This document shows positions 42,555-48,009 of a DNA stretch of 64,000 nucleotides, piece by piece. Numbering within the stretch: the first letter of the stretch is position 1; each line of letters starts with the position of its first letter. The stretch comes from Thermoanaerobaculia bacterium. GTDB taxonomy: Bacteria > Acidobacteriota > Thermoanaerobaculia > UBA5066. The stretch lies in assembly GCA_963719225.1 (NCBI GenBank), contig CAVRAY010000001.1:2912001-2976000 (forward strand), read 5' to 3'. A model generated the notes under the pieces. It was not told where the DNA came from, did no database searches, and saw only the letters and a program-made list of their open reading frames with translations. The position numbers were made by a program, and so were the translations under genes.

Positions 42555-43037
42555 TTGAAGCTGGCCCGGCTCGTTCTGGGGCTCGACGCTCGAATGGCGA
42601 AACTCCTCGCGCCACTTTCAGACGTCGTGCTGCTCGTCCTACGAGCCACATGGGGATGGCAGTTCTTCCAGACGGGCCTCGGAAAGCTCCGGAACATCGA
42701 GCGCGTCATCACGTTCTTCACGTCCCTCGGGATTCCGGCCCCGGCCCTGAGCGCGTATTTCGTCGGAACGCTCGAGATGGCCGGAGGTCTGCTCCTGCTC
42801 GTGGGCCTTTTCGCGCGCCCCGTCGCCCTTCTCCTCGCAGGGAACATGGTCGTGGCCTATCTCACCGCTGACCGCGGTGCGCTCTTCGGCGTTCTTTCCA
42901 ACCTCGAAGCCTTCCAGAAGGCGGATCCCTTCATGTTCCTCCTCGTCTCCGTGATCGTCCTCGCGTTCGGTGCGGGCGCCGTATCACTGGATCGCCTCAT
43001 GCAAAAGGCCGGAGCGGCTGATCCAGGTCCTCCGTGA
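42555..43037 (+). CDS. DoxX family membrane protein (BufD-like)
   Basis: LR...GW.FFQTGLGKL, E..GGLLLL.GL..R, GAG..SLD; TTG start with GGAG RBS. Confidence 0.9.
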   Translation: MKLARLVLGLDARMAKLLAPLSDVVLLVLRATWGWQFFQTGLGKLRNIERVITFFTSLGIPAPALSAYFVGTLEMAGGLLLLVGLFARPVALLLAGNMVVAYLTADRGALFGVLSNLEAFQKADPFMFLLVSVIVLAFGAGAVSLDRLMQKAGAADPGPP

Positions 43038-43163
43038 CGTCCGTATGGAATGGAGTCGATTTTGCGACATAATCTCGTTCTCATACACGCCGCAATGCTA
43101 CGCATCGCCGGAAAAGCAGAAGAATCACCCCCAAAACTGCAAAGGAACTCCAAGGAGGCACCC

Positions 43164-43547
43164 ATGAATCGTCGCCAGTTCGCCACCACCCTCGGAGCCG
43201 CGGTCGCGGGCATCGTCGCCGGGAAAGCCCTCCTCGCCGACGACAAGCCGGCCGAGTCCGCCAAACCCAAGGACCACGTTTGCGCGGGCAAGAACGGATG
43301 TAAGGGCCAGGGCGCCTGTACCACGAAGGACAACGCGTGCGCCGGCCAGAACGCCTGCAAGGGCAAGGGCGGCTGCGCCTCGGCGTCCATGAAACACGAC
43401 TGTTCCGGGAAGAACGAGTGCCATGGCGCGGGCGGCTGCGCCACGAAAGACCACAAGTGCGCCGGCCTGAACGACTGCAAGGGCAAGGGGGGCTGCGCGG
43501 TTCCGCTCAAGAAGAAGGCGGCTCCCGCGGCGCCGAAGGCAAGCTGA
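43164..43547 (+). CDS. Cys-rich RiPP/metallophore precursor (BufA2-like) with twin-arginine-like leader
   Basis: MNRRQF.. signal; 4 x CxGxNxCxGxGxC (12 Cys); AAGGAGG RBS; directly upstream of DUF692. Confidence 0.85.
   Translation: MNRRQFATTLGAAVAGIVAGKALLADDKPAESAKPKDHVCAGKNGCKGQGACTTKDNACAGQNACKGKGGCASASMKHDCSGKNECHGAGGCATKDHKCAGLNDCKGKGGCAVPLKKKAAPAAPKAS
43281..43496 (+). repeat. Four intragenic Cys-rich repeats (CAGKNGCKGQGAC, CAGQNACKGKGGC, CSGKNECHGAGGC, CAGLNDCKGKGGC)
   Basis: Read directly from the translation. Confidence 0.9.
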
Positions 43548-43558
43548 TTCTTCTTCCC

Positions 43559-44431
43559 ATGGGAGACCGGTTCGGATTGCCCGATCTCGGCGTGGGGGTC
43601 GGGCTCCGCACGGTCCACTTCGGACACGTCCTCTCGAAGGCGCCCGACGTGGACTTCTTCGAGGCCCTCACCGAGAACTTTCTCGATACGGGCGGGCGGC
43701 CGCGCTACGTGCTCGACCGCGTCGCTGAGCGCTATCCGATCGTCCTCCACGGCGTCTCGATGTCCATCGGGGGGGCGGACCCTCTCGACCTCGGTTACCT
43801 GAAGAAGGTCAAGGCGCTCGCCGCGCGCGTGAACGCGCAGTGGGTGTCGGATCACCTCTGCTTCACCGGAGTTTCGGGGCGCAACACACACGACCTGCTC
43901 CCCCTGCCGTACAACGAGGAGACTCTGCGCCACGTCGTGTCCCGCGTGAAGCAGGCCTCCGACGCCCTCGAGCAGCCCCTCGTCCTCGAGAACCCGTCCT
44001 CGTACCTGGAGTTCCGGTCCTCGACGATGTCCGAGGCCGCGTTCTTCGCGCGCCTCCTGGAGGACGCAGACTGCGGGATGCTGCTCGACGTGAACAACGT
44101 CTACGTGAGTTCCGTGAACCACGGGTTCGATCCCGTCGCCTATCTCGATGCGATTCCGGCGGACCGAGTCGTGCAGTACCACCTCGCCGGCCACACCGAC
44201 AAGGGCACTCACCTCCTCGACACGCACAGCGCGCGCATGAAGAGGGACGTCTGGAAGCTCTATGCGCACGCGATCGCCCGCACGGGGCCGCGCACCACGC
44301 TGTACGAATGGGACGAGGACATCCCGAGCTTCAAGACCCTCCACGGCGAGGCGAAGAAGGCCTTCAGGTATCGCCCGCCCTTCGTGCGCGAATCCCGCTT
44401 CGACGCTCCGCGGCGGGCTGCCCGTGCCTGA
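43559..44431 (+). CDS. MNIO (DUF692) multinuclear non-heme iron oxidative enzyme
   Basis: G.GLR..H, ENF, HGVSMSIGG, SDHLC, HDLLPLP, ENPS, LLDVNNVYV, HLAGH, DTH, EWD. Confidence 0.95.
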   Translation: MGDRFGLPDLGVGVGLRTVHFGHVLSKAPDVDFFEALTENFLDTGGRPRYVLDRVAERYPIVLHGVSMSIGGADPLDLGYLKKVKALAARVNAQWVSDHLCFTGVSGRNTHDLLPLPYNEETLRHVVSRVKQASDALEQPLVLENPSSYLEFRSSTMSEAAFFARLLEDADCGMLLDVNNVYVSSVNHGFDPVAYLDAIPADRVVQYHLAGHTDKGTHLLDTHSARMKRDVWKLYAHAIARTGPRTTLYEWDEDIPSFKTLHGEAKKAFRYRPPFVRESRFDAPRRAARA

Positions 44432-45254
44432 GCTGCCGCGTCTCGAGCGTTGGATGCAGGCTGTGATCGTGCACCCGGCCGGCGTCGAAAAAGCCGTCCG
44501 CGCCCCGTCCGCGACGCGCCACTTGAGAGTTGCCGAAGCGCGCCGGGCGATCCTCCCTTCCCGGACGATGGAGCCCCTCGAGCGGCTCGCGGTCTATCAG
44601 GGGATGTTCCCGCTGCGCATGCACGATGCGCTGGCGGCCGATTATCCCGGCGTCGCCGCCTTCCTCGGACCCGAACGCTTCTTCGAATTCGTCCTCGCCT
44701 ACGTGGCGGTCCATCCCTCCCGCAGCTACACGTTCGCCCACCTCGGCACCCACGTGCCTGAGTTCCTGAGGAGAACGCGTCGCTTCTACCCCGCTCCCTT
44801 CCTCCACGACCTCGCGCGTCTCGAGCGCGCGATCACCGAGGTGTTCGAAGTCGACGAAGAGGGCGCGCAGCACCCGGTGCGACCGCTCCGCCACGTCGCC
44901 GCGGATTGGGAGTCGCGGCGCTTCGCCACGCCCTCGACGCTTCGGCTTCTCGCATTCGACCACGCCGCGGGAGCCGCGCTCGACGCGCTGAAGGCGGGGA
45001 AGCGTCCGCAAACCCGCCCGCGCGCGACGTGGACGGCGCTGCACCGCCGCCGCTACGCGGTCTACCGTCTCGAGCTGACGCGGCAGGAATTCCATCTCCT
45101 CGGCGCCCTCGCGAAGGGACGGACGCTCGGGGCGGCGCTTCGCGCGGCGGCCCGCGCATTTGGGAAAACGCTCGAGCCGCGCGCCGTCACGCGCGCGTTT
45201 CGCACCTTCACCGCGGAAGGCCTGCTTGCGGGGGTTGAGGGAAATCGATCCTAG
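44424..45254 (+). CDS. DUF2063 (HvfC/BufC-like) MNIO partner protein
   Basis: RLAVY....R...AL..DYP.V...LG...F......Y...HPS.S, DLARLE.A. Confidence 0.88.
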   Translation: MPELPRLERWMQAVIVHPAGVEKAVRAPSATRHLRVAEARRAILPSRTMEPLERLAVYQGMFPLRMHDALAADYPGVAAFLGPERFFEFVLAYVAVHPSRSYTFAHLGTHVPEFLRRTRRFYPAPFLHDLARLERAITEVFEVDEEGAQHPVRPLRHVAADWESRRFATPSTLRLLAFDHAAGAALDALKAGKRPQTRPRATWTALHRRRYAVYRLELTRQEFHLLGALAKGRTLGAALRAAARAFGKTLEPRAVTRAFRTFTAEGLLAGVEGNRS

Positions 45255-45484
45255 GGCTTCGGTGCGCGCGGCGGCAGATCGCACGCCTGCGGATCCGACT
45301 GGAAGCCGATCTTGTTGTGGGTGCCGTCGCAGAACGGCTTGCTCGCGGACCCGCCGCAGCGGCAAAAGGCGATCGTCGTGCGGCCGCCGAGCCCGAACGC
45401 CTTCTCCGTGCCGTCCACGACGTTGACGTCCCCGGTCACGAGGAGCGGGCCGTTCGGCTTCACCAGAATCTTGACGTCGCTCAT
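45251..45484 (-). CDS. CDGSH iron-sulfur domain protein
   Basis: NGPLLV, CRCGGSASKPFCDGTH. Confidence 0.93.
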   Translation of the reverse strand: MSDVKILVKPNGPLLVTGDVNVVDGTEKAFGLGGRTTIAFCRCGGSASKPFCDGTHNKIGFQSDPQACDLPPRAPKP

Positions 45485-45493
45485 CTCATCACC

Positions 45494-46003
45494 TCAATGC
45501 GGCTTCTTCTCGAGATCGAGGAAGCGCTTCTTCGCGGTCTTCAGGAAATCGAACGCGCGTCCCTTGCCCGACCAGCCCTCGAGCGTCACGTTCGCGGCGA
45601 GGCCGGGGCGCGAGACGACGAGGGTCGGAAATCCGCGCAGCCGATAGCGCTCCGCGAGCGCGAGCATCTCCGGGGAGTTCTGCCCGGTTTCGCGCATGCG
45701 ATCCACTACCTCGATCGGGACGAAGTCCTTCTCGACCTGGGCCGCCGTCTCCGGTACCGCGAAGACCTGCCCTTGGAGCTGCCGGCAGGGCTCGCACCAT
45801 CCGGCCGTGAAGAAGTAGAGCGCGGGCTTTCCGCTCTTCTTCGCCTCGGCATCACCGGCGGTGATCGAGCGCCACTTGATCGGTTCCTTGCCATGCGCGG
45901 CCTTCCTGAAGCTCGTATCCGATCGTGAAGGACCGGGCACGGCCAGAACGATCGCGAGGAAGGCGCCGAGCAACGGGGGAAGGGGCCGGGGGACACGCAT
46001 CAT
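45494..46003 (-). CDS. Secreted thioredoxin family protein
   Basis: Signal peptide; KP.LYFFTAGWCEPC; GFPTLVV. Confidence 0.88.
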   Translation of the reverse strand: MMRVPRPLPPLLGAFLAIVLAVPGPSRSDTSFRKAAHGKEPIKWRSITAGDAEAKKSGKPALYFFTAGWCEPCRQLQGQVFAVPETAAQVEKDFVPIEVVDRMRETGQNSPEMLALAERYRLRGFPTLVVSRPGLAANVTLEGWSGKGRAFDFLKTAKKRFLDLEKKPH

Positions 46004-46047
46004 TTCGATCTTAACAGCGGCGAATCGCCGCCGCACGCCGACAGGTC

Positions 46048-48009
46048 TCACCGCGCTTCGGGAAGGTCGGAAAGGAACGCGCGCAGGGACCGCGGCCATT
46101 CCGAAGGCGGACGCGCGAGCGCCTGCCTCAGCGTGACCGTCCGGATCCCGCGCCCCGCTTGGGAGAGGAGGGCGGCGGCCACGGCGTCCTGACCCGCGTC
46201 GCGCGCCGCGAGCGCCCGGACGAGGGCGACGACCGGAGCGTTCAGGACCCGCTCGGGCAGAGAGTCGAGAAACGCCCGGGCGTCCTCCATCCGCCCCGAA
46301 AGTCTCAGCGCTTCCGCCCGGAGGGCGGCGGTGTACGCGGAGGGCGAAACTTCGAAGAGCTTCCTGGCGAGGCGGGAGGCGCGATCCGGACGCGCGATGT
46401 CCAGATTCCGCAGCGTCTGATCCGCGAGCCCCGCGATCCAGGCGGTGCTGTACGTGCCCGGCCGCTCACCGTCGGGTCGCCCGAAGCACATGAAGAGGTG
46501 CGGCCACCGGAACCTGGAGGCGAGGTACCGCACGAGCGGCGTCTGCGTCGTGATCTGCGGCGAGTCGGCCGGAAGGCGCGGAACGGCATCGGGGCTCGTC
46601 GCGAGCCACGGAGGCGAAGCGAGGCGGCGCCTGCGCTCGTCGTCGTCACGCTCGGCGATGCGGTTCGCGAGGAGAAACGGATGAACCCGGAACGCCGAGA
46701 AGGCGGGGTCTGAAGCCGCAGGCACGTAGCGAGGCAGCCAGTACGTCCCCTCACGGCTCTCCGGCGGCCGGAAGGAAACGGGGTACTCCTCGTACAGCGC
46801 ACGTGGGACGCGCGCGAGCCCCGTGGCCGAAACGTAGTAGAACGTGGCCGCCTCGGCCTGAAACGTCCCGAGTGCGTTCACCCCGATGCCGAGGACGACG
46901 AGCCCGACGCCGGCGGCGCGTCGCGCGGGCGTCCCGACGGCCGTGCCCGCCGCCGAGGCGAGAAGCGGGACGAGCGGGACCAGGAAGCGCGGTCCCCACC
47001 CCCCGCTGCCGTCCCAGGCCCACCAGCCCGAGTAGAGCGCGAGCGTTCCCGCCGTGAGAGCGAGCATCGAGGCCGCGGCGCCGCGCGTCTCCCGCCCGCG
47101 AACGAGGGAGACGAGGCCGACCGCGGCGAGGAGACCCAGCGGGAAATAGAGCAGGAGCCCCTTGTTCGGGCCGACCAGGAGGCGCCAGGCCCCGTCGAGG
47201 GGCGGATGTGAGAAGAACTGCCCGCGCGAGTAGGAAGAGAAAGGGCGGCCGAAGCGAACGAATTCGAACGTGAGCATGGCCGCGATCGGGACGGCGATGC
47301 CCGCGAGAGCCGCGGCCCAGGCCCTCGACTTCTCACGCGCCGGAGGCCACGCGCCGGCGAGAAGCGGCAGCAGCGGCAGCGGGACGAAGAGGAGGTTCAC
47401 GACCTTCGTAAGCGCGAGAAAACCGGCGCAGAAGCCCGCGGCGAAGCCGAGCTCGAGAGCCCGCTTTCCTTCCGTCCGGCTCGCGCGGACCGCGAGCATC
47501 ACGGCGAATACGAGACACACGGCCTGGAGCGGCTCGGTGAACCCGCAGGCCGTGTACGGCCAGAGAGGCGAGGCGAGGGCCGTCCCGAACACGGCTAGGC
47601 CCTGGCCGAAAAGGCCCGCGCCCAGCAGCTTTGCGAGGAGGCCGGCTCCGCCGGCCGCCGCCGTCACGAGGAGGACTTGCAGGAGAACGAAGAGAGTCTG
47701 CGAGGTCCGCGCTCCAAAACGTGCCTCCCACGGGCCCGCAGCGAGGGCGAAAGGCACCTCGAGCAGCGGCAGGCCCATGCCGTAGGGCGAAACCGCGTCG
47801 CCGGCCGGCCGCGGGATGGCGAACGTCTGCCCGCGGGCGATCCCGACCTCGAAGGTCTCGGCGATCGAGATCGCCGTATAGAGCATCTGCTGCTCGTCGG
47901 AGACCGTCCCGAAGGTCCGCTCTTCCGCCGTCCCGGCGAGCAGGAGGAAGACGGCGAGTACCGAAAGACCGAGCGCACGCGGCGCGCTCTTCAGGGACGG
48001 GAGGGCCAT
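46048..48009 (-). CDS. GT-C-fold glycosyltransferase-like membrane protein
   Basis: SPYGMG, LWPY...F.EP, GPNKGLLLYFP, WWAWDG..GWGPRFL.P; paralog of 464-2488. Confidence 0.65.
   Translation of the reverse strand: MALPSLKSAPRALGLSVLAVFLLLAGTAEERTFGTVSDEQQMLYTAISIAETFEVGIARGQTFAIPRPAGDAVSPYGMGLPLLEVPFALAAGPWEARFGARTSQTLFVLLQVLLVTAAAGGAGLLAKLLGAGLFGQGLAVFGTALASPLWPYTACGFTEPLQAVCLVFAVMLAVRASRTEGKRALELGFAAGFCAGFLALTKVVNLLFVPLPLLPLLAGAWPPAREKSRAWAAALAGIAVPIAAMLTFEFVRFGRPFSSYSRGQFFSHPPLDGAWRLLVGPNKGLLLYFPLGLLAAVGLVSLVRGRETRGAAASMLALTAGTLALYSGWWAWDGSGGWGPRFLVPLVPLLASAAGTAVGTPARRAAGVGLVVLGIGVNALGTFQAEAATFYYVSATGLARVPRALYEEYPVSFRPPESREGTYWLPRYVPAASDPAFSAFRVHPFLLANRIAERDDDERRRRLASPPWLATSPDAVPRLPADSPQITTQTPLVRYLASRFRWPHLFMCFGRPDGERPGTYSTAWIAGLADQTLRNLDIARPDRASRLARKLFEVSPSAYTAALRAEALRLSGRMEDARAFLDSLPERVLNAPVVALVRALAARDAGQDAVAAALLSQAGRGIRTVTLRQALARPPSEWPRSLRAFLSDLPEAR

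Follow-up and report, generated by a model that had tools for sequence, protein, structure and literature searches.

Gene content of the locus

We analysed a 64,000-nucleotide stretch of the genome of a Thermoanaerobaculia bacterium (Acidobacteriota; contig CAVRAY010000001.1, positions 2,912,001 to 2,976,000, hereafter the window), in which positions 42555-45254 hold a small gene cluster for a probable RiPP (a peptide made by the ribosome and modified after translation). The cluster encodes a DoxX-family protein, a cysteine-rich precursor, an MNIO (DUF692) enzyme and a DUF2063 protein. All four genes are on the + strand, as described in an initial annotation made from the sequence alone. The features of the locus, in window coordinates, are the following.

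42555..43037, + strand, DoxX-family membrane protein, BufD-like, accessory (Pfam DoxX 73.4 bits, cut-off 23.6)
43019..43046, + strand, conserved promoter-like element of the extracytoplasmic function (ECF) type, TGATCC-N17-CGTAT, putative function, overlapping the 3' end of the DoxX gene
43063..43082, + strand, second conserved non-coding motif, TGCGACA..TCTCGTTCTC, one occurrence in the genome
43164..43547, + strand, BufA2-family precursor, 127 aa, 12 Cys (NF050166 61.3 bits, cut-off 60)
43164..43238, + strand, twin-arginine-type leader of the precursor, residues 1-25, with RRQF, a Gly/Ala h-region, Lys21 and predicted cleavage after ALLA
43275..43376, + strand, six-Cys module 1 of the precursor, His38 and Cys40-Cys71, spacing 6,6,7,6,6
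43395..43496, + strand, six-Cys module 2 of the precursor, His78 and Cys80-Cys111
43559..44431, + strand, MNIO (DUF692) bufferin maturase, BufB (NF050167 349.4 bits, cut-off 310; PF05114 352.8 bits)
44424..45254, + strand, DUF2063 partner, BufC / PME1 type (PF09836 51.9 bits, cut-off 27.2)

The precursor starts with an ATG placed after AAGGAGG, and we rejected a start at 43050 because the longer open reading frame (ORF) is merely an in-frame upstream extension. The DUF2063 ORF overlaps the MNIO stop by 8 nt, and the order precursor-MNIO-DUF2063 recurs at related loci. By taxonomic label, most of the nearest MNIO relatives (83-94% identity) are Thermoanaerobaculia, Acidobacteriota, and 26 of the 29 genus genomes have a precursor homologue. 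The DoxX gene starts with a TTG preceded by an AGGAG ribosome site, a start context that is the same in a relative (locus L007). The initial annotation had counted DoxX as part of a bufferin/oxazolin architecture. The gene is indeed present, but only 2 of the 26 genus loci carry it, and we therefore rejected it as a core component: in this genus it is accessory. A doxX gene lies upstream in other lineages too, and in Caulobacter BufD1 is dispensable (bioRxiv 10.1101/2024.03.18.585515).

The cluster belongs to the bufferin 2 family

The initial annotation read the locus as a bufferin-type MNIO RiPP cluster and proposed a comparison with profile hidden Markov models (HMMs) of the BufA families. 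This comparison bears the reading out: the precursor passes the cut-off of BufA2 (61.3 vs 60) and the MNIO that of BufB (349 vs 310), which makes the locus a bufferin-2 cluster. All 47 precursors that we aligned match the BufA2 profile at E<=1. Here and below, statements on papers cited by PMC number, and on the Microbulbifer work, refer to the accessible sections of these sources. The reference for the family is bufA2B2C2 of Caulobacter vibrioides (CCNA_03001-02999; BufA2 accession YP_002518374.2; profiles NF050166 and NF050167; PMC11626156, PMC12452194). The locus resembles it in the order precursor-MNIO-DUF2063, in the six-Cys module and in having a signal-like N-terminal leader. Bufferin 2 clusters carry no sigma genes of their own (PMC12452194), and the window cluster is like them in lacking a protease, transporter or sigma gene.

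Two related families were considered and rejected. Oxazolin (HvfA-D) and the EGKCG-type bufferins share with our locus an MNIO, a DUF2063 protein, a DoxX protein and an exported Cys-rich repeat precursor, but inspection of the window precursor revealed no EGKCG repeat and the scores of the cluster proteins are all under the cut-offs of the oxazolin profiles (HvfB 258.7 < 360, HvfC 44.9 < 142, and HvfX, on the DoxX protein, 52.6 < 80). Bufferin 1 combines a four-Cys DUF2282 precursor with an adjacent SigF-NrsF pair; the window precursor has no Pfam match at E<=0.1, DUF2282 included, and a search of the genome gave no NrsF. Among solved chains, the MNIO is closest to 3BWW (E 4e-52), and the C-terminus of the DUF2063 protein has a weak NGO1945_C match. 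No solved structure matched the precursor at E<=1, and the ESM Atlas returned only unnamed clusters, with recognition below the reliability mark.

The family is already partly characterised. It is named BUF_6/12Cys (bioRxiv 10.1101/2024.03.18.585515), and its members have six Cys in 90% of cases and 12 in the rest, the latter modelled as duplicated domains (PMC12452194). Since about 10% of the members have 12 Cys, we rejected this number as a novelty. In Caulobacter, the product is 18 Da lighter, with -4.03 Da at each of the four central Cys and a likely CysI-CysVI disulfide; it absorbs near 305 nm, is induced by copper and protects against it (bioRxiv 10.1101/2024.03.18.585515), although the chemistry is said not yet to be identified directly (PMC12452194). 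The view that such a product is not chemically characterised is thus too strong for the family, but it stands for its 12-Cys members, of which we found none characterised in the accessible parts of the bufferin and captophorin literature examined. The locus also resembles the Cys-Lys group of captophorins, which combines an MNIO, a PME1 (DUF2063) protein and a precursor with multiple Cys-Lys (PMC13097082), and differs from the characterised captophorins (fontiphorin, oxazolin and gonophorin), which are of the EGKCG / Lys-Cys type (PMC13097082). The features of this locus that we did not find in the papers searched are the RRxF leader, the His-capped spacing type and the upstream motif.

The precursor is made of two His-opened six-Cys modules

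The 12 Cys of the precursor (positions 40, 46, 52, 59, 65, 71, 80, 86, 92, 99, 105 and 111) form four CxGxNxCxGxGxC units, preceded at -2 by His in units 1, 3 and 4 (H38, H78, H97) and by Asn in unit 2. This pattern, noted in the initial annotation, is specific: the motif has four matches in the six frames of the window, all in the precursor, against one in total in 30 base-shuffled windows, and a genome-wide search gave no match elsewhere. Its interpretation changes with comparison. Among 104 four-unit proteins (of 214 examined), the His at -2 is kept before unit 1 (102/104) and unit 3 (103/104) but infrequent before unit 2 (15/104) and unit 4 (27/104). As only units 1 and 3 conserve it, the repeat is better described as two six-Cys modules, each opened by a His, than as a 3-Cys repeat: the four units stand, and the conserved three-His pattern was rejected on the low frequency before unit 4.

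The proteins with a single module fall into two spacing types. In type A the gaps between Cys are 6,6,7-9,6,13-14 and position -2 is Val, Gly or Ile (21 of 21 proteins); every one of the 7 Pseudomonadota precursors obtained from a sample of 201 genomes belongs to it. In type B the gaps are 6,6,7,6,6 and position -2 is His (10 of 10 proteins). Judged by spacing and His, the window precursor is a doubled type B module, unlike the Pseudomonadota-type bufferin 2 (the spacing of the Caulobacter BufA2 itself being outside this comparison). In a quick MNIO tree of 80 rows, from which L065, L075 and rows with a short MNIO or no N-terminus were left out, a branch separates type B from the rest with a modest SH-aLRT support of 83. 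The Cys motif that we used gave no precursor at 10 of 58 MNIO loci, nor at 17 weak Pseudomonadota loci, L097 and L113, and one genome flagged as unpublished (G024) was counted in tallies only, its sequence supporting none of our claims. Type-B sequences are already present in Data set S2 of the captophorin work (116 occurrences of CKGKGGC; PMC13097082). We found no discussion of the split in Cys spacing in the accessible bufferin and captophorin literature examined, supplementary figures being outside its scope.

Module number varies among relatives. Other precursors range from 6 to 20 Cys (20 in L103), which indicates that the number is labile. Planctomycete-type precursors with RR leaders (L018, L020, L021, P0106, P0114, P0122, P0123) have 9-10 Cys and an additional C-terminal segment; a Buf2 cluster is also present in a cultured planctomycete. 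Some genus members (L109, L239-L241) encode a second precursor with 8 Cys, a non-RR leader and no promoter motif; doxX adjoins it in two cases, and no MNIO was found within the fetched flank. In the window precursor, His87 (43422-43424) replaces the nearly invariant Lys after Cys86, and Cys86 may therefore be modified less efficiently, or His87 may add a ligand.

These data also bear on whether the Cys are modified in the expected manner. In a metallothionein-like arrangement, few or none of them would be modified (or all 12, with no disulfide) and metals would bind an intrinsically unstructured chain. The sixth Cys lies 6 rather than 13-14 residues after the fifth, such that the proteobacterial CysVI segment is missing; the number of units varies, with odd numbers seen; all Cys are modified in the EGKCG-type relatives of published work; and AlphaFold gives no confident fold. 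The last point is uninformative, the mean pLDDT being 43 for the full precursor (47 sequences) and for the core (121 sequences); published AlphaFold models of bufferin 2 show a small folded domain. We regard this arrangement as very unlikely, because the MNIO scores above the BufB cut-off and its linkage to the precursor is tight, and because the Cys-Lys-Gly motifs are nearly invariant among precursors.

A twin-arginine leader and the route of export

Signals for export by twin-arginine translocation (Tat) follow the consensus S/T-R-R-x-F-L-K and are recognised by an invariant pair of Arg, a Phe at +3, a weakly hydrophobic h-region and a basic residue in the c-region; a basic residue after the h-region is a Sec-avoidance feature of such signals. 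The precursor begins with MNRRQF and its leader has the Arg pair, the Phe, such an h-region and the basic residue, its cleavage site being placed by eye. We found RRxF in 34 of 48 distinct precursors, namely those of an MNIO-based scan, which favours close relatives, and the window's own. We also drew an even Acidobacteriota sample of 401 genomes, 41 of which have a BufA2 match; there, 8 of 30 type-B and 0 of 13 type-A precursors having an N-terminus carry the motif. To avoid circularity, leaders were then anchored by their h-region, which was possible for 67 of 97 precursors and not for the other 30. Among the 37 anchored leaders with Phe, RR is found in 36 and KR, RK or KK in none. Both Arg positions show synonymous codon changes, with 4 and 6 codon types among 40 sequences. 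A basic c-region residue is present in 31 of 34 RR leaders against 0 of 23 Sec-type leaders of type B.

The genome can also serve such a signal: it encodes TatC (C1:1447071-1447703) and two TatA/B/E proteins. RRxF followed by an h-region occurs in 18 of its 2543 crude gene calls, against 4 for KR, 1 for RK and 2 for KK, and the 11 annotated proteins among the other 17 include molybdopterin/Fe4S4 and 4Fe-4S proteins; some of them share the atypical Ala or Thr at +4. Export of the precursor by Tat, which the initial annotation had raised as a possibility, is strengthened by these comparisons, and from the pattern of conservation we consider it likely.

The leader might instead belong to an ordinary Sec-exported bufferin 2, in which the arginines provide charge to the n-region or are part of the sequence recognised by BufB-BufC. 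Several features weigh in that direction and against Tat. The window precursor has no match to Pfam TAT_signal (PF10518), and TIGR01409 matches only 3 of 47 precursors, weakly (best E 0.015), the window's not among them. The +4 residue is Ala, Thr, Ser or Asn (Ala here) and not the hydrophobic Leu of the consensus, and the hydrophobicity of the h-region is nearly equal in RR (1.94) and Sec-type (2.02) leaders. An AxAGxxAG h-region is common to RR, Sec and lipoprotein leaders, and 22 of the 30 type-B leaders of the Acidobacteriota sample are non-RR, which implies that type B does not require Tat. Preliminary published evidence, in the sections available, places the signal peptide within the recognition sequence. 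Yet charge alone does not account for Lys never replacing Arg in the anchored leaders, nor for the covariation of the basic c-region residue with RR. The miss by the HMMs is weak evidence, as Pfam TAT_signal matches just 1 of the 11 other RRxF proteins of the genome. RR is also unnecessary for enzyme recognition in general, because non-RR precursors of the same subtype adjoin closely related MNIOs. On balance, Sec export of the window precursor appears quite unlikely.

The route may have changed more than once around one h-region. Some relatives combine RRxF with a lipobox (a lipoprotein label given to L020 was rejected as a regex artefact), and the quick MNIO tree needs three changes of the Tat label, while being compatible with one origin. 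The window leader differs in its RRxF motif from bufferin 2 as published, where Sec and lipoprotein signals are described, the latter in about 16% of members (PMC12452194). Our literature searches, which covered few subscription journals, found no Tat or twin-arginine export of DUF692/MNIO peptides. The word "Tat" does not occur in the accessible main text of the bufferin, landscape, captophorin and Microbulbifer papers, nor do "twin" and "signal peptide" in that of the captophorin paper (PMC13097082). Data set S2 of the latter does contain RR leaders, including RRDF-leader precursors beside the CKGKGGC type, without comment. One of its EGKCG-type sequences, WP_068583901.1, has a TRRDFLK leader, which indicates that twin-arginine leaders also occur in the oxazolin-like group (PMC13097082).

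As to why Tat would be used, the initial annotation proposed folding or metal loading before export. Nothing seen here supports metal loading. Holding the precursor in the cytoplasm until it is modified would be the more economical reason.

A conserved promoter-like element precedes the precursor

Aligning 15 upstream regions revealed both conserved motifs found between the 3' end of the DoxX gene and the precursor. The first, of type TGATCC-N17-CGTA, lies upstream of 23 of the 26 genus precursors (spacer of 17 in 22 cases and 18 in one) and of 0 of 3 second paralogues, against a background of 0.0049 per 260 nt. The pattern has 66 matches in the 29 genus genomes and its reversed control 2. Of 30 motif loci examined, DUF4331 genes follow five, DUF2064 genes three and the bufferin precursor at least three; the others lead to unrelated genes or to no clear ORF. 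The window genome has three exact sites: at the bufferin operon, at a DUF2064 gene and, with N16, at an ECF sigma gene. Exact sites with other spacers are equally frequent in this genome (0-4 per spacer), and it is their conservation between genomes, not their number in one, that supports a promoter; a relaxed genome-wide scan allowing one mismatch did not rise above background (82, 30, 17, 89 and 25 matches for spacers 15-19). A scan for sigma-70 promoters found no site, and terminators were about as numerous as expected by chance. From its conservation, we think it likely that the element is an ECF promoter. We found no TGATCC-N17-CGTA motif upstream of bufferin precursors in the published literature examined.

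The second motif, at 43063-43082 between the element and the precursor, could be an operator; one subclade of the genus has its TGCGACA word upstream of the promoter-like element instead. The DUF2064 site, at C1:375911 (-), has spacer 17, and its gene is DUF2064/TIGR04282-like. At C1:3189475 (+), a copy of the first motif with spacer 17 and one mismatch precedes a 491-aa ORF that by eye looks like a pyridine nucleotide-disulfide oxidoreductase. The DUF4331 gene of the window genome has no exact site upstream.

The element has the same -35 and -10 words as the RpoE-ChrR (ECF11) promoters, described as TGATCC-N16-CGTA in Shewanella and Pseudomonas (PMC5507510, PMC4336711, PMC6852236). It differs from the SigF promoter, which is GTAACC-N16-CGAA, and NrsF was not found here. 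As in the RpoE-ChrR systems, the motif also precedes a sigma gene followed by a gene for a ChrR cupin-like protein: exact TGATCC-N16-CGTA is upstream of 7 of 10 sigma loci with a ChrR-cupin neighbour and of 0 of 20 other sigma loci. In the window genome this pair (L149, C1:2793735-2794934) consists of an ECF sigma and a 168-aa ChrR-cupin protein, with TGATCC-N16-CGTAT in front. An ABC-3 metal-transporter permease gene stands before it, and a DUF4331 gene is some 7 kb away. The likeness has limits. The sigma has SigK as best NCBIfam match, below cut-off. The anti-sigma candidate (Cupin_7 61.2 bits) has no Cys in its N-terminal domain, and is thus unlike the ChrR anti-sigma domain, which binds zinc by a His/Cys site (PMC6852236). 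Two points weigh against the pair as regulator of the operon: the spacer is 17 at the bufferin operon but 16 at the sigma's own site, and 11 of 12 genus genomes with a close ChrR-cupin homologue carry the motif, as do 12 of 14 in which none was found. Another SigK-like paralogue may therefore read it (the sigma gene at C1:2793838 has a paralogue at C1:1026892), and that the cupin-linked sigma does so is, on this comparative evidence, a tentative proposal. A literature search for ChrR together with DUF692 gave nothing beyond the SigF paper.

The regulation raises the question of what the product is for. With the same chemistry and export, it could serve not to detoxify copper but to protect against oxidative or envelope stress or to buffer another metal (Zn, Cd, Ag, Hg). 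The upstream motif matches oxidative-stress RpoE-ChrR promoters and also stands before the sigma/ChrR-cupin pairs, before DUF4331 genes in 5 genomes and before DUF2064 genes; the genome yielded no NrsF; and none of the identified flanking genes (glycoside hydrolases, CDGSH, thioredoxin-like) is copper-related. Against this, the thiooxazole peptides tested in the papers examined bind copper, the cognate sigma is uncertain, and an anti-sigma candidate without N-terminal Cys could have a metal as its signal. We consider a role other than copper detoxification unlikely.

Enzyme specificity and a model for the pathway

The MNIO carries an EWDE motif at residues 250-253, in which Glu253 follows the presumed catalytic Asp252, a position mapped through the 3BWW alignment. 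An acidic residue follows this Asp in 48 of 57 type-B, 15 of 17 type-A and 0 of 6 outgroup enzymes. This position would correspond to the reported Cys-Lys specificity site of MNIOs, and the captophorin Cys-Lys group has an acidic residue there as well (PMC13097082). Glu253 would fit an MNIO of the Cys-Lys type.

Taken together, we favour, with a probability of roughly 60%, a bufferin-2 cluster whose two-module precursor is modified with thiooxazoles, is likely exported by Tat and binds metal outside the inner membrane. The ECF promoter would drive the precursor, MNIO and DUF2063 genes, transcribed by a SigK/RpoE-like ECF sigma, for which the best candidate in the genome would be the one paired with the ChrR-like cupin, and not SigF-NrsF. 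In the cytoplasm, the MNIO-DUF2063 pair would oxidise the inner Cys of each module to 5-thiooxazoles. By analogy with the Caulobacter Buf2, each module would acquire four -4.03 Da modifications and one CysI-CysVI disulfide, or about -36 Da in total; the 102-aa core would have a monoisotopic mass of 9967.6 Da if the leader is cut off after residue 25. The RR leader would delay export and keep the precursor in the cytoplasm until it is modified, and Tat would then let the heavily modified chain cross the membrane, where signal peptidase would cut near residue 25. In the periplasm, the two modules could bind copper or a similar soft metal, probably with one site per module and with His38 and His78 as candidate ligands.

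Besides the leader and spacer features given above, several observations count against this model. The BufA2 score is only 1.3 bits over its cut-off (and falls below it, to 59.3, with the wrong start), and the low pLDDT lends the modules no structural support. The modification pattern of Caulobacter may not transfer, since the Cys spacing differs from the proteobacterial type. A related Microbulbifer MNIO cluster is not induced by copper, according to the accessible part of that work. Finally, the relatives on which our counts are based are not independent samples.

If the model holds more broadly, the Acidobacteriota, Planctomycetota and Myxococcota could have a distinct bufferin branch. Such a branch would be characterised by tandem His-capped compact six-Cys modules and by leaders switching between Sec, Tat and lipoprotein types around one h-region, including a Tat-exported RiPP. 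In this genus it would have an RpoE/ChrR-like promoter instead of the copper-sensing SigF-NrsF, and its product would be a multi-site metal or oxidant buffer. We put this forward as a speculative generalisation, doubtful at present. It touches on a problem named by the authors of the bufferin work, namely that a precursor with a Sec signal must escape export until the cytoplasmic enzymes have finished (PMC12452194). Since nature provides Tat and Sec versions that share an h-region and are served by closely related enzymes, leader swaps could probe such premature export. The same pairs bear on a proposed loading of copper while the unfolded chain emerges from Sec (bioRxiv 10.1101/2024.03.18.585515). 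A natural Tat-exported RiPP, if true, would also interest peptide engineers; one study on lanthipeptide display reports that preliminary attempts with Tat failed (PMC5686179). The promoter-like element provides a specific hypothesis for the inducer of Buf2 clusters, which have no sigma genes. Without confirmation of export and regulation, the cluster is a further member of a very large family.

Neighbouring genes and a second MNIO locus

The genes around the cluster were annotated and their synteny compared. Directly downstream, on the - strand at 45251-46099, lie convergent genes for CDGSH iron-sulfur and thioredoxin-like proteins, whose synteny is kept in close relatives. On the upstream side, the neighbouring genes encode a glycogen debranching enzyme and a GH63-like hydrolase. 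Neither synteny nor the annotation of the flanks gave any sign that the CDGSH, thioredoxin-like or glycoside hydrolase neighbours belong to the cluster.

A second MNIO locus (L151) is found on the minus strand at C1:1465792-1467841. It encodes a TIGR04222 membrane protein (99.2 bits, cut-off 43) that ends in a Gly/Ser/Cys tail, an MNIO that changes frame near 1466440, beside a purine-rich run (an assembly error or a real frameshift), and then a short ORF.

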